Notes: generated from the sequence alone by a model not told the origin. A stretch of 64,000 nucleotides of DNA from an uncultured delta proteobacterium (GCA_963808235.1 CAWEEQ010000004.1:2912001-2976000), one strand, 5' to 3'; numbered from the stretch's first letter, positions 20,179 through 25,797 are shown. Program-made: numbers and translations.

Positions 20179-22147
20179 ATGAATCCCGAAACGGTACCCA
20201 ATTCCTCCGACATAACACCCGGCTTCGGCGGGCTTCGCGTGGTCGCATTCGAGAGCCGGATGGCTACCGAAGTTGCGACCATGATCGAGCGCCGCGGCGG
20301 TATCGCGATCGTCGCGCCTGCGATGCGCGAGGTGCCGCTCGAGGACAACCACGCCGCGCTCGACTTCGCCGCTCGCCTGCTCGCGGGCGAATTCGACGCA
20401 GTCGTGTTCATGACCGGCGTCGGCACGCGTGCGCTGTTCCAGGCGATTGAAACGCGTCATCAGCGCGCCGCGATCGTGCGCCGCACTCGCGCGCCTCATC
20501 ACGGTTGCGCGCGGACCCAAACCGATTCGCGCGCTCCGCGATCTCGGCGTCGAGCCCTCGATAGTCGTGCCGGAACCGAATACATGGCGCGAGGTGCTGA
20601 ACGCGCTCGCATCGCAGGTTGATCTCAAGGGCAAGCGCGTCGCGGTGCAGGAATATGGCGTCTCCAATCATGAGCTGACCGCGGGACTCGAAGCGCGCGG
20701 CGCTCGCGTCACGATCGTGCCGGTGTATCGATGGACTTTGCCGGTTGACCGCGCGCCGCTGCGTGCGGCGATGAACGCAATCGCGTCGGGCAACGCCGAT
20801 GTCGCGATCTTCACCAGCTCCAACCAGGTCACCAACGTCATCCAACTGGCGGAAGCCGAAGGTATCGGCGCCGAGGTGAAGCGCGGATTCTCGCGCATCG
20901 CGGTCGGCTCGATCGGTCCGGTCTGCTCGGAGCAGATTCGCGCGTACGGGCTCACCGTGGACTTCGAGCCGGAGCACTCGAAGCTCGGCCATCTTGTGAA
21001 GGAGGCCGCGTCCGAGGCGCCTCGGATTCTTGCCGCGAAGCGCGATCGGAAAGTTCAGATCGAAGTTGTCGGATCGCCGAAACAGTCGCGCGCTGCGATC
21101 GCGATCCCCGAGCGTTCTCTGCTCGCCGATCATGCGATGATGAAAGCGTGCCGGCGCGAGGTAACCACCTACACGCCGATCTGGCTGATGCGCCAGGCGG
21201 GCCGTTATATGCCCGAGTATCGGCGCGTTCGCGAGCGTCACGGCTTTATCGAGATGTGCCGGCGTCCGGAGCTCGCTGCCGAAGTCACCATCACCGCCGT
21301 CGAGCGGCTCAAGGTGGATGCCGCGATCATTTTCGCCGACATCCTGCTGCCGCTGATTCCGATGGAAGTCGGACTGCATTACGAAACCGGCGACGGTCCG
21401 GTGATCGATCGTCCGATACGCACCGCCGCCGATCTCGAACGTATCCCCGCGGTCGATCCCGCCGCGCTCGGCTTCGTCGGCGAATCAATCAAGCTGGTGC
21501 ACTCCGCGATCGGCGCGACGACTCCGCTGATCGGATTTGCCGGCGCGCCATTCACGCTCGCCTCGTACCTGATCGAGGGCGGCTCGTCGCGCCAGTATCA
21601 GACCACGAAGACTTTCATGTACACGCAGCCCGAGACGTGGCATCGCCTGATGGAGATGCTCGCGCGGACTACCGCCGACTATCTGAAGATGCAAATCGCC
21701 GCCGGCGCCGACATCGTGCAGATTTTCGATAGCTGGGTGGGCAGTCTCGGCCCCGACGATTACCGCCGCTTCGTGCTGCCGCATACGGCGTCTGTGATCG
21801 CCGCGATTCCGGCGAACGTTCCCGTCATTCACTTCGGCACCGTGACCGGCAATCTTCTCGAGTTGATGCGCGAGGCGGGCGGCGACGTGATCGGCCTTGA
21901 TTGGCGCGTCGATCTCGCCGACGCGTGGGCGCGCCTCCATTACGATGTCGCGGTGCAAGGCAACCTCGATCCGATCGCACTTTTCGCCGACGTTAGCGAA
22001 ATTCGATCGCGCGCGCGCGCGATTCTCGACCAGGCAGCCGGCCGCCCCGGCCACATCTTCAACCTGGGACACGGAATCCTTCCCGAGACGCCGGTCGATC
22101 ATGTCATTGCACTCGTCGATGCGGTCCATGAAATGAGTCAACGATAG
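20179..22147 (+). CDS. hemE: Fused uroporphyrinogen-III synthase (HemD) - uroporphyrinogen decarboxylase (HemE), apparent frameshift near 20478
   Basis: HemD motifs (VARGPK, VYRW, FTSS, SIGPVC) are in one frame with HemE motifs (PIWLMRQAGRYMPEY, IIFADIL, QGNLDP, IFNLGHG). Confidence 0.9.
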
Positions 22148-22183: not shown

Positions 22184-23108
22184 ATGAGCGCGAAGGCAAA
22201 GTGCGATTCGGTCTTGATGGTCGGATTCGGCGGACCGACGCGCCCAGATGAAGTGCGGCCGTTTCTCGATAACGTGCTGCGCGGACGCCCGGTGCCGCGC
22301 GAGCGCTACGAAGCCGTCGTGCATCACTACGAACTGCTCGGCGGCAAGTCACCCTACAATGAATTGACGATGCGCCAGGCGGATGCGTTGCGCATCGAGC
22401 TCGCCAGAAAAAATACAAACGTGCCGGTCGCAGTCGGGATGCGCAACTGGAATCCGTATGTCGCCGACTCGATGCGCGCACTCGCTAAGAACGGTGCTCG
22501 ACGCGTGCTCGCATTTATCCTCGCGGCCCATCGATGCGAAGCAAGCTGGGAGCGTTACCAGCAAACCGTGCACGACGCTCAGACCAACACCGGCGAGTCG
22601 GAAATCGAAGTCGTGTATCCGGAGCCGTGGCACGACCATCCCCTATTCATCAAGGCGGTCGCTTCGCGCACCCGCGAGGCCCTCGCATCGTCTCGACGCC
22701 AGTGCGCGGTCGCGCGCGATTCTCATCTTCACCGCGCACAGTATTCCGGTCGCGATGGCCGAGGCGAGTCGGTACGTCGAGCAACTTACCGAGTCGGCAC
22801 GGATGGTTGCGTCCGATCTCGGCGTTAGCGCGTGGCAGTTTGCGTATCAGAGCCGCAGCGGCAGTCCGCGCGACCAATGGCTCGAACCCGGCATCAACCA
22901 AACGATTCGCGATCTCGACGCCAATGTCGCGGTCGTCGTGCCGATCGGTTTTCTGTGCGATCACGTCGAGGTCCTGTACGATCTGGATATCGAAGCGGCG
23001 CAAATCGCGCGCGAAGCAGGAATCCGCTTTGAGCGCGCACCGACCGTCGGCGATCATCCGTTGTTCGTCGAAATGATGGCGTCGATAGTCCGCGGCCACG
23101 TCTGCTGA
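22184..23108 (+). CDS. hemH: Ferrochelatase, apparent frameshift near 22688
   Basis: FGGP, GGKSP, GMRNWNPY in the first frame; FTAHSIP, YQSRSG, WLEP, PIGFLCDHVEVLYDLD in the second. Confidence 0.9.
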
Positions 23109-23219
23109 GAGTCCGTGAGTTTTTCAAAAGTCTTTGTGTCACCCTAGAGCGCAGCGAAAGCCTGTCCTGAGCTCTGTCGATCGGAATCCCGGATCGATCT
23201 CGGCGAATGGAAAAACCCA

Positions 23220-23243
23220 GTGGCACGGGCGTCCCTGCCCGTG
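23220..23243 (+). repeat. Single GTGG/GTAG-type REP hairpin
   Basis: GTGG-CACGGGC-GTCCCT-GCCCGTG: tetranucleotide foot plus 7-bp stem. Confidence 0.55.
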
Positions 23244-23618
23244 GATCGATGCGCGAGCTTCCTGCTCGCGCCACCACCCTTTCTAGGAGACTTCTTGCAT
23301 AACTGGCTGTTGGGAATTGCTTATCCTACTGGCGCGCCTCTTTTTTGTGTCATTCTAGAGCGAAGCGAAGAATCCCGGTCTTTCTTTTCTCCCCCTCCGT
23401 CATCCCCCGTCCGTCATCTTGAGCGGAGGCTGCCGGAGTAAAATGCTCGGAGCCTGCCCTGAGTATTCTCGAAGGGCGAAGCGATGCTCTTTCTTTTTTC
23501 TTTGTGCCTTCTCCTTGTGTCATTCTAGAGCGAAGCGAAGAATCCCGGCTCCAATTTCTGCGATCTAGTCTTTGTGTCATTCTAGAGCGAAGCGAAGAAT
23601 CCCGGATCCGAAAGCTCG

Positions 23619-23918
23619 ATGCGGAAAACAGCTCACAGCAAGAACTACTACGTTTACATAATGAGCAGCCTGTCGCGTACTCTCTACACCGGGGTAACCA
23701 ATGACCTCGAGCGACGTGTGAACGAACATAGGAGTGGCGCAATACCTGGATTCACCAGACGCTACAAAATCGACCGTCTAGTTTATTTTCAGGAAACCAA
23801 CGACATCGGCGAGGCAATCGCTGCGGAGAAACAGATCAAAGGCTTGCTGCGGCCAAAAAAGATAGCGCTGATCGAGGAGGAAAACCCGACTTGGCGCGAT
23901 TTGAGTGCTGAGCCGTAA
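23619..23918 (+). CDS. Stand-alone GIY-YIG nuclease family protein
   Basis: YYVYIM...LYTGVTNDLERRVNEH...GFTRRY...LVY...AIAAEKQIK...KKIALIEEENPTWRDL. Confidence 0.92.
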   Translation: MRKTAHSKNYYVYIMSSLSRTLYTGVTNDLERRVNEHRSGAIPGFTRRYKIDRLVYFQETNDIGEAIAAEKQIKGLLRPKKIALIEEENPTWRDLSAEP

Positions 23919-24369
23919 CAAAAAACCGGGATTCTTCGCTTCGCTCTAGAATGACACAAAACTCAGAAGACAAACGGACTCAGGATCTCTGAGCAGAGTC
24001 CGATTCTTGTGTCATTCTAAGGCCAAGCGAAAGCCTGCCCTGAGCCCTGTCGGAGGGAATCCCGGATCCAATTTCTGCGATCTAATCTTTGTGTCATTCT
24101 AGAGCGAAGCGAAGAATCCCGGATCCAATTTCTGCGATCTAATTCTTTGCGTCATTACTAAGGCCAAGCGAAAGCCTGCCCTGAGTCCTGTCGACGGGAA
24201 TCCCGGATCTAATTTCTGCGATCTAATCTTTGTGTCATTCTAGAGCGAAGCGAAGAATCCCGGCTCCAAGCTCTGCGATCTTTGTGTCATTCTAGAGCGA
24301 AGCGAAGAATCCGGATCCGGAAGCTCGATGCGGAAAACAACCCGTAAGCGCTTCGCATGAGCGCTTCAA

Positions 24370-25797
24370 GTGACCTCCAACCCGAACATCAAGCTCGTCG
24401 CGATAATCGGCGCGGGAATCACGGGCCTGAGCGCGGCGTATCGACTGCGCGAACTCGCCGCTGCGCACGAACGCCCGCTCGAAGTGATCGTGCTCGAGCG
24501 CGGCGCGCATTTCGGCGGCCCGCTTGAAACAATTCGCCGCGACGGGTTCGTTATAGAGACTGGCGCCGACTCATTCCTCTCCGAAAAACCCTGGGCCGCC
24601 GATCTCGCGCGCCGACTCGGCATCGGGATCGAACTGATTCCGACCCGCGACGTTTACCGCAAGACGTTCGTCGTTCGCGCCGGGAAACTGGTAGAGATCC
24701 CCGCGGGATTTTCGCTGCTCGCGCCGGCGCATCTCGGCCCTGTTTTCAAAAGTCCACTCTTCTCGACGGCCGGCAAACTCCGCATCGCGCTTGAACCCTT
24801 GATCCCCGCGCGCGCGAGCGATTCCGACGAAAGCCTCGCATCATTTGTGACGCGAAGACTCGGGCGCGAGGTACTCGATCGCGTCGCGCAGGCGCTGGCC
24901 GGCGGAATCTACACCGCCGATCCTGAGCGGCTCAGCATCGCGGCGACGATGCCGCGATTTGTCGAGATGGAACGCCGCTATGGGAGCGTCATCAAAGGAC
25001 TTCGCGCGGCCGAACAAACTCGCGCGTCGAAAAGCGCGGAGGTGAGCGGCGCAAGATGGAGCCTGTTCCAGAGCTTCAGCAATGGAATGGCGACCTTGCC
25101 GGAGACGCTGGTCACCAAGCTCGGCGGCGCGATTCGCAAAGCGGCGGAAGTCGTCGCGATTTCGCGCAGCGGCGAGCGATGGAGGCTCGCGATCGCGGGT
25201 GGAGACTCCATCGAGGCCGACGCTGTAGTCTGCGCGGCACCCGCATTCGCCGCTTCGCGCATTCTGTCGACGCTCGCTCCCAGAGCCGCCGAGCTGCTCG
25301 GCGCAATCAGCTATGCGTCCGCGGCGACGGTCAATTTGACTTTCCGCGAGAGCGACTTCGCGCGTCCGCCCGAGGCGTTCGGCTTCGTCGTGCCGGCGTG
25401 CGAGCATCGGCGCATCATCGCGGGCAGCTTCTCCAGCTTCAAGTTCGAAGGACGAGCACCCGCGGGCGCAATCCTCGCGCGCGCATTCGTCGGCGGCGTG
25501 ATGCAACAATCGATGATGCGACTTTCCGACGACGAAATCGTCGCCGCGGTGCGCGACGAGTTTCGCGCCCTGCTCGGCGTCGAGGCCGCCCCCGGAGCGG
25601 TCGAAGTCAGGCGATGGCCCGACTCGATGCCTCAGTACGAAGTCGGCCATCTCGATCGCGTCGCCGAGATCGAACGCCTCGTCGCCGCGCTTCCCGCATT
25701 CGCAATCGCGGGCGCGGCCTATCGCGGAGTTGGCGTACCCGACTGCGTTCGCAGCGGCGAGCAAGCCGCCGACGCGATCTTTGCCGCAACACAATGA
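24370..25797 (+). CDS. hemY: Protoporphyrinogen/coproporphyrinogen oxidase (HemY-type, often annotated hemG)
   Basis: IIGAGITGL FAD motif, ETGADSF, GIYTADP, MPQYEVGH, GVGVPDCV. Confidence 0.92.
   Translation: MTSNPNIKLVAIIGAGITGLSAAYRLRELAAAHERPLEVIVLERGAHFGGPLETIRRDGFVIETGADSFLSEKPWAADLARRLGIGIELIPTRDVYRKTFVVRAGKLVEIPAGFSLLAPAHLGPVFKSPLFSTAGKLRIALEPLIPARASDSDESLASFVTRRLGREVLDRVAQALAGGIYTADPERLSIAATMPRFVEMERRYGSVIKGLRAAEQTRASKSAEVSGARWSLFQSFSNGMATLPETLVTKLGGAIRKAAEVVAISRSGERWRLAIAGGDSIEADAVVCAAPAFAASRILSTLAPRAAELLGAISYASAATVNLTFRESDFARPPEAFGFVVPACEHRRIIAGSFSSFKFEGRAPAGAILARAFVGGVMQQSMMRLSDDEIVAAVRDEFRALLGVEAAPGAVEVRRWPDSMPQYEVGHLDRVAEIERLVAALPAFAIAGAAYRGVGVPDCVRSGEQAADAIFAATQ

Follow-up and report, generated by a model that had tools for sequence, protein, structure and literature searches.

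A GIY-YIG nuclease gene enclosed by inverted hairpins forms a discrete, probably Ssn-type cassette between hemH and hemY

The locus

The DNA studied here is a stretch of 64,000 nucleotides, referred to as the window, deposited as an uncultured delta proteobacterium (GCA_963808235.1, CAWEEQ010000004.1:2912001-2976000), in which a small nuclease gene enclosed by hairpin repeats lies between hemH and hemY. The gene, here called ssn (23619-23918, + strand; positions are counted from the first letter of the window), is an open reading frame (ORF) whose 99-aa product matches the Pfam GIY-YIG family (PF01541) over residues 9-81 with an E value of 5.9e-16; the Pfam search returned no second domain above threshold, consistent with a single-domain nuclease. 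An inverted pair of repeats, 35 nt long and 100% complementary, brackets the gene. Its left arm (23571-23605, + strand) stops 13 nt upstream of the ssn start codon, and its right arm occupies 23926-23960 on the - strand.

A first-pass annotation, made from the sequence alone, had described this lone gene in the hemH-hemY cluster, its perfect inverted pair, five further direct copies of the short unit, three long variants and a near-constant linker, and our searches recover each of these features. It had also proposed that a GIY-YIG enzyme, and not an HUH transposase, acts on the hairpins, driving repeat amplification or its own mobility by a mechanism that it took not to have been worked out.

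Relation to the Ssn family

The Ssn family was defined by Chenal et al. (2025, Nat Commun 16:2388, PMC11893778) as single-domain GIY-YIG proteins of ~94 aa (CDD cd10448) whose partner is an oriented hairpin repeat, named NTS in Neisseria and SRM elsewhere. According to the available text of that paper, SsnA of Neisseria meningitidis binds the folded NTS hairpin solely as single-stranded DNA (ssDNA) and cuts a few nucleotides upstream of it, and mutagenesis showed that cutting is influenced by the GTC preceding the palindrome and binding by the C that follows it. The members tested there, the Neisseria and Wolbachia enzymes, neither bound nor cut double-stranded DNA (dsDNA), and SsnA did not interact with RNA.

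A tblastn search of a plasmid collection matched a Neisseria gonorrhoeae record (E 7e-15, 75 bits), a value below the published working threshold for Ssn (tblastn E < 1e-10). The match falls on a 94-aa ORF without annotation that has 13 copies of NTS around it in 1.7 kb. Aligned pairwise over 85 aa, this ORF and the protein of the window share 46% identity (E 2e-23); the length and context of the ORF suggest that it is the gonococcal SsnA orthologue. Residues Y13, Y23, G25, R33, H37 and E70 are invariant across 11 aligned homologues, and we take Y13, Y23, R33 and E70 to be the catalytic Tyr pair, the Arg and the metal-binding Glu of GIY-YIG enzymes. By sequence, the sole PDB matches were the UPF0213 entries 1zg2 and 1ywl (E 5.6e-8 and 1.2e-5; best 36 bits), which are weaker than the match to the N. 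gonorrhoeae ORF. The small UPF0213/YhbQ-type GIY-YIG proteins have a similar size and fold; to our knowledge, they have no hairpin-repeat partner. Searches of NCBIfam, PADLOC and PHROGs returned no family for the 99-aa protein.

The likeness to the published system extends from the protein (~94-99 aa, single GIY-YIG domain) to the repeat, which stands on both sides of the gene with a GTCA head, a Y-rich stem and a C after the stem, and which has dispersed, mostly intergenic copies. The differences are also clear. The hairpin described here, with its 4-5 bp outer stem, GA/GA loop and GCGNAGC core, escapes the published SRM motif; copy number is low, at 86 family members of which 10 are of type A; and a single genome houses four paralogs that differ in their hairpin variants. 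The motif results argue against membership: the degenerate motif matches 0 of 4 units typed in this genome, none of its 26 genome-wide matches lies near an ssn gene, and it matches the flanks in just 3 of 78 diverse ssn loci. Near-canonical NTS-like arms do occur in relatives, namely in L050 (another family of the same class) and L124 (Cloacimonadota), and they appear to bridge the gap between canonical NTS and the hairpin variant of this genome. From the combined protein and repeat comparisons, we consider it likely that the hemH-hemY locus belongs to the published Ssn/SRM system.

Homologues L057-L136 come from Cyanobacteria, Chloroflexota, Planctomycetota, the candidate phyla radiation, Bacteroidota, Firmicutes and other groups and are 52-68% identical to this Acidobacteriota protein. 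Identity this high across phyla is unusual and suggests frequent horizontal transfer. The plasmid collection yielded 39 matching 'plasmid' records, many of them megabase-sized, and phage matches were weak (34-42% identity); neither search disclosed a clear vehicle for the cassette.

Hairpin architecture

The short unit reads TGTC-ATTCT...AGAAT-C, so that both the GTC head before the stem and the C after it are kept. Its architecture comprises an outer stem of 4-5 bp, an internal GA/GA loop and a GCGNAGC mini-hairpin; the loop core is GCGAAGC here and GCGCAGC or GCGTAGC in other copies, a GNA-type mini-hairpin flanked by GA/GA. Such flanked mini-hairpins are stable, yet neither GNA mini-hairpins nor tandem G.A pairs are represented in the folding energy model; pairing was therefore assessed by covariation. 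Among the three long variants that were folded, a good fold was obtained for one only (z -2.6).

The covariation set comprised 58 units picked solely because they stand as inverted repeats on either side of an ssn gene. In 43 of them, the 4-mer that follows GTCA recurs as its exact reverse complement, with A, C or T and then C after it, compared with 204 of 2802 cross-pairings (7.3%) between units with different 4-mers. This control replaced an earlier one based on the non-reversed complement (27/61), which was confounded by purine runs. The flanking units fall into 13 stem types, and the bases after the stem are TC in 32 of 47 units and CC in 7. The stem pairing is evidently kept up by compensatory change.

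The same hairpins might instead function in RNA, whether as terminators, as stabilisers or as a small RNA, with a regulatory link to the gene. Their position downstream of genes, and the short distance between the left arm and the start codon, would suit such a role. Rfam, however, gave only two matches, which are at chance level and well short of the gathering scores, sites resembling terminators or promoters stay within what shuffles give, and the units point either way with respect to the genes beside them; the reported indifference of SsnA to RNA (PMC11893778, available text) points the same way. We regard an RNA-level role as very improbable.

Filled and empty sites

Comparison with relatives of the same genus indicates where the insertion begins and ends. 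In 19 of 20 congener loci, hemH and hemY lie at most 67 nt apart without ssn (the twentieth showed hemY only), and the compact spacer of these 19 relatives contains no hairpin. It follows from this adjacency that the block at 23107-24355 is an insert. Junction alignment against the closest relative, G019 (HemY 90% identical), and 18 others places the whole missing block at these coordinates, a length of 1249 bp. The empty site that the first-pass annotation had suggested looking for at this junction is thus present in 19 of the 20 congeners compared.

Within the insert, homology to the closest cassettes begins at 23567-23572 and extends to ~23937-23968, that is, from repeat to repeat over ~390 bp. 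For most close cassettes it stops at 23958-23960, at the end of the right arm; one exception, L052 in G010, shows homology that continues to 24031. The remainder of the inserted block consists of other small dispersed repeats. At the level of sequence, the ~390-bp hairpin-gene-hairpin unit is demonstrably a discrete cassette, with the left arm as its left end and the right arm as its right end.

Searches of 24 congeners recovered the gene in 19, or in 18 of 22 when two genomes flagged as unpublished are left out, and related cassettes occupy about eight sites in the genus. The prkA/DUF444 site carries ssn in 10 congeners and in this genome, with flank identities confirmed, and the site after uvrB carries it in 3 congeners and in this genome. 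Five further sites are filled in congeners and are without the gene here; at four of them this genome has no hairpin, and at the fifth, filled in G002, it has a solo hairpin. One of these five, in G006, is a single-cassette insertion just past a stop codon, and the matching site is empty in this genome. In a tree of 34 ssn proteins, from which 4 truncated rows were omitted, the hemH-hemY copy nests inside the prkA-site clade (support 99/98) and has as its partner (93/82) a prkA-site copy from a different genome, not the one that this genome carries. That the cassette is mobile is supported both by the empty sites and by homology that runs from repeat to repeat. An insertion polymorphism of this kind is documented here, whereas mobility of an Ssn cassette is only hypothesised in the available text of PMC11893778.

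A gene lying between two inverted hairpins also recalls homing, in which a dsDNA endonuclease would cut empty hairpin pairs in duplex form and the gene would be copied in by break repair. The GIY-YIG homing endonucleases of phages and introns (I-TevI, I-BmoI and the Seg proteins) share the catalytic fold and selfish-element behaviour; they carry separate DNA-binding domains and cut duplex DNA. Gene-less hairpin pairs do exist, one of them in G010 (C123), and the site filled in G002 bears a solo hairpin in this genome, as homing would allow. The protein described here, in contrast, is a bare 99-aa catalytic domain with no DNA-binding domain beyond that core and no PHROG match. The would-be target is moreover missing, in that neither the hemH-hemY spacer of the 19 relatives nor four of the five other gene-less sites in this genome contains a hairpin. 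With the tested Ssn members neither binding nor cutting dsDNA in the published account (PMC11893778, available text), duplex homing appears improbable.

Nuclease and repeats across genomes

The association between ssn and flanking inverted repeats was assessed in two sets of loci, with a repeat called at a score of at least 13 and displaced pairs serving as controls. The close set contained 38 ssn loci (34 from relatives and 4 from this genome), after 2 of 40 had been left out as matches too short. A flanking inverted repeat was called at 28 of these loci, and none of ~164 control pairs scored above 12. For the wide set, one genome per species was scanned, which turned up 591 relatives; the best 80, spanning many phyla at 52-78% identity, were taken, and 78 loci were usable. 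Here a flanking inverted repeat was called at 51 of 78 loci compared with 6 of 296 controls. Heads-out was the commonest arrangement in both sets (17/37 and 27/78 loci). For comparison, the available text of PMC11893778 reports at least one SRM near 71% of Ssn homologues, and SRM on both sides in 42%. The first-pass annotation had asked whether each homologue is flanked by its own type of inverted repeat; a flanking repeat is present at most loci and absent from the remaining 10 of 38 and 27 of 78.

Seven ssn genes form a syntenic clade (L038, L041, L042, L044, L045, L046 and L048) in which no flanking inverted repeat reaches the score cut-off. The corresponding site in this genome, C4:3288645-3289034, is without ssn. 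The ORFs of the clade end in RDSSLRSE in six of the seven and in RDSSPRSE in L045; we read these tails as possible read-through into a 3' hairpin, which would suggest that these genes have a 3' hairpin only.

Repeats and paralogs within the genome

A structural-pattern search found 86 members of the hairpin family in this genome and 3 in the reversed genome. By our own tally, the subfamilies number roughly 10, 35, 25 and 13 copies, and 18 of the 86 members lie within 1.5 kb of an ssn gene. With crude ORF calls, 63 of the 82 short units fall between genes, 23 of these 63 between convergent ones (background 19%), and units are found in both orientations relative to neighbouring genes. Between 2.0 and 3.44 Mb of C4, the units away from ssn genes number 19 on the + strand and 3 on the - strand; the + strand excess of hairpins changes sign nowhere and follows neither neighbour gene orientation nor the weak GC skew.

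The genome carries four full ssn paralogs and two 5' fragments. Each full paralog is bracketed by its own hairpin variant, with compensatory stems TTCT/AGAA, TTCC/GGAA and TCCC/GGGA. At the uvrB-site paralog (L139, C4:1749200-1750550), the 5' end, comprising the hairpin and ~29 codons (~210 bp), is tandemly triplicated, as is the 3' end, comprising the last codons and the hairpin (~190 bp), with one intact gene between them. Tandem arrays of four 12-13-nt heads (TTTGTGTCA + 3-4 nt) occur at C4:1750453-1750550 and C4:1803815-1803904. These are the only two clusters of TTTGTGTCA heads genome-wide; each lies beside an ssn gene, and the reversed-genome control has none.

Gene-less forms are also present. 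At C4:1002100-1002693, a hairpin, ~107 nt resembling the 3' leader of an ssn cassette and an inverted hairpin recur 2.5 times with a 283-nt period. At C4:570611-571123, two type-C hairpins with extended arms lie heads-out around ~430 bp, in which a ~75-aa hydrophobic ORF takes the place of ssn. Public runs yielded short soil-metagenome contigs, none of which covers the whole stretch; one of them, in X4, joins 23607 to 23920 in the manner of a gene-less hairpin pair, but its shorter side is 27 letters and it was not counted.

Palindromic, mostly intergenic repeats, enriched between convergent genes and arranged in BIME-like mosaics, are what a classical REP/RAYT or IS200/IS605 system would produce, with an HUH tyrosine transposase elsewhere moving the repeats and the GIY-YIG gene a bystander. 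The parallels with REP/RAYT (REPIN) and BIME loci include palindromic extragenic repeats inverted around an associated gene, mosaic arrays and gene-less doublets; the enzyme here differs in being a GIY-YIG hydrolytic nuclease and not an HUH Y1 transposase. With IS200/IS605 'peel and paste' elements the locus shares very small size and subterminal DNA hairpins recognised in ssDNA. In IS200/IS605 elements a single strand is processed at both ends. The inverted copies that bound the cassette instead place the cuttable site of one end on the opposite strand to that of the other, and no covalent-intermediate chemistry is expected of a GIY-YIG enzyme. A search for Y1_Tnp (PF01797) gave no match in this 93%-complete genome, although control genomes do match, and the repeat variants co-vary with the GIY-YIG paralog that they flank. 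An HUH origin is accordingly the least credible explanation considered here, and a highly improbable one. The earlier proposal that the GIY-YIG enzyme acts on the hairpin gains from this result, from the clear kinship with Ssn and, by analogy, from the biochemistry of the homologue SsnA; such action at this locus may be regarded as a qualified prediction.

The surrounding array and neighbouring genes

The spacer between hemH and hemY is a nest of at least four repeat kinds, counting two dispersed families. Left of the cassette lie the first long hairpin-repeat variant (23133-23195, +; repeat family D3, with other copies at C4:1603673, C4:1604245 and C3:46019), an unrelated small dispersed repeat of ~70 nt (23210-23281; 88-90% copies at C4:2382187, 2454274, 661601 and 634836), a direct copy of the short hairpin unit (SRM type A; 23344-23378, +), a second dispersed family consisting of a degenerate long hairpin-like unit (23410-23506; 86-98% copies at several C4 sites) and another direct short unit (23514-23548, +). 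A linker copy with 2 mismatches (23549-23571, +) connects this unit to the left arm.

Right of the cassette, all on the + strand, the second long variant (24006-24068, family D3) is followed by an exact linker copy (24066-24088), a short unit (24088-24122), a linker copy with 2 mismatches (24123-24145), the third long variant (24147-24209, families D2 and D3), a linker copy with 1 mismatch (24207-24229) and a short unit (24229-24263). The third long variant lies within a 141-nt tandem duplication, in which 24017-24140 and 24158-24281 are 94% identical. The array ends in a partial 5' cassette copy (24281-24339, +; family D5), comprising a hairpin unit one C shorter, the 5' leader and the first 12 nt of ssn, with 90-95% identity to the 5' ends of cassettes in relatives.

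The 27-nt core of the short unit occurs 7 times in the window, 6 times on the + strand (the left arm and the five further direct copies) and once on the - strand, and 0 times in 100 shuffles. The linker, with 4 copies at no more than 3 mismatches, is confined to this locus genome-wide. The tandem duplication on the right and the locus-unique linker together indicate that the array grew by local duplication: we infer that it arose by tandem duplication of hairpin-plus-linker units and not by repeated insertion.

Upstream, hemH (ferrochelatase; 22184-23108, +), identified by Pfam and by comparison with relatives, is split between two frames by an additional nucleotide near 22685, its halves spanning 22184-22828 and 22383-23108. 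Relative to three congeners, the extra base falls at 22680-22690 and is either a genuine frameshift or an assembly error. A 572-aa ORF at 20429-22147 combines HEM4 (uroporphyrinogen-III synthase, residues 15-190) and URO-D (decarboxylase, residues 235-568) and looks like a HemD-HemE fusion. Downstream, the gene at 24370-25797 (+) encodes a 475-aa protein assigned by Pfam to the Amino_oxidase family, which we read as a HemY-type protoporphyrinogen oxidase.

Discussion

The comparisons described above delimit a cassette and suggest how it may behave. By homology to Ssn, the nuclease would bind its cognate hairpin only in ssDNA and would cut the hairpin strand on the 5' side of the conserved GTCA head, at a distance of a few nucleotides. 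Two inverted hairpins with their heads out would then give each strand one cuttable site just outside the gene. The cassette may be, or may lately have been, a selfish mobile or homing-like unit that spreads when hairpins exposed in ssDNA, during replication or transformation, are broken and the host mends the breaks by repair or recombination, while the extra local units would stem from tandem duplication of the hairpin with its linker. In its fullest form, this reading describes an autonomous ~390-bp mobile element whose mobilising enzyme is a bare GIY-YIG single-strand nuclease, with host repair at hairpins nicked in exposed ssDNA carrying copies, both of the cassette and of the gene-less forms derived from it, to new sites. 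On this view, copying that broke off early would have left behind the partial 5' and 3' ends and the head stutter arrays. We put this reading forward as a tentative one.

Several results weigh against this account of the locus. GIY-YIG enzymes are hydrolytic nucleases, and we know of no strand-transfer step among them, so the nuclease alone cannot explain integration. Neither at hemH-hemY nor at four other filled/empty pairs was a target-site duplication evident, although two of the alignments were too diverged to read. Each set includes loci without a flanking inverted repeat (10/38 close, 27/78 diverse). The correlation between hairpin and ssn counts is weak (rho 0.34, p 0.11) in 23 congeners that, as kin, are not independent, and four congeners without an ssn match still hold 3-20 hairpins each. 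Of the 10 exact copies of the 27-mer in the genome, the hemH-hemY locus accounts for 7, leaving 3 elsewhere. In a nearest-neighbour DNA fold, the short unit reaches -1.2 kcal/mol (z +0.8), no better than shuffles.

Some of these results fit better with a domesticated host function, in which the nuclease would serve in ssDNA 'restriction' or as a recombination modulator at hairpin-marked loci, a role already put forward for Neisseria, and the patchy distribution would reflect homologous exchange between strains with hairpins as portable homology. Modulation of natural transformation is the only role tested in the family in the available text of PMC11893778. The closeness of the hemH-hemY copy to the prkA-site copies of other genomes fits strain exchange, and a host function would accommodate the lack of a visible target duplication, the persistence of hairpins in genomes without an ssn match and the seven-gene syntenic clade without a flanking inverted repeat. 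The hairpin pair around a non-ssn ORF at C4:570611-571123 resembles the NTS-gene-NTS arrangement of Neisseria. Against this explanation, cassette homology across sites halts at the repeat ends and does not reach the flanks, the compact spacer of 19 of the 20 congeners offers no hairpin homology for exchange, and gene-less repeat-to-repeat derivatives exist. Domestication is, in our view, possible but doubtful.

The claims of the first-pass annotation about function fared unevenly. Its suggestion that the nuclease drives its own mobility stands as regards the cassette, whose mobility is supported by empty sites and repeat-to-repeat homology; the nuclease is a candidate for the mover. Amplification of the repeat by the nuclease finds little favour, given 10 copies of type A, an array that resembles tandem duplication and the weak correlation across congeners, and the genome-wide repeat count that it called for returned a small number concentrated at this locus. 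Its premise that no mechanism had been worked out does not hold. The available text of PMC11893778 already describes the pairing of nuclease and hairpin, so the central idea was in print; its Discussion terms the NTS-ssnA-NTS layout IS-like and likens it to IS200/IS605, REP, BIME and domesticated transposases. A further search of the literature library turned up no later study of SsnA.

The pairing of nuclease and hairpin is therefore already known, and the locus opens no new field. What our analysis adds is comparative evidence for a discrete, insertable hairpin-gene-hairpin cassette, which the available text of PMC11893778 only hypothesises. This evidence consists of boundaries that coincide with the ends of the repeats, sites that are filled in some members of one genus and empty in others, derivatives without the gene and, in one genome, several nuclease/hairpin pairs whose stems differ by compensatory changes. 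The published SRM motif misses most hairpins of this branch, so that motif-based surveys undercount the system. If their specificities differ, matched nuclease/hairpin pairs could serve as orthogonal ssDNA-cutting reagents. Should the cassette prove to be an autonomous element, it would represent a new class of minimal prokaryotic mobile element without a DDE, HUH, serine or tyrosine recombinase.

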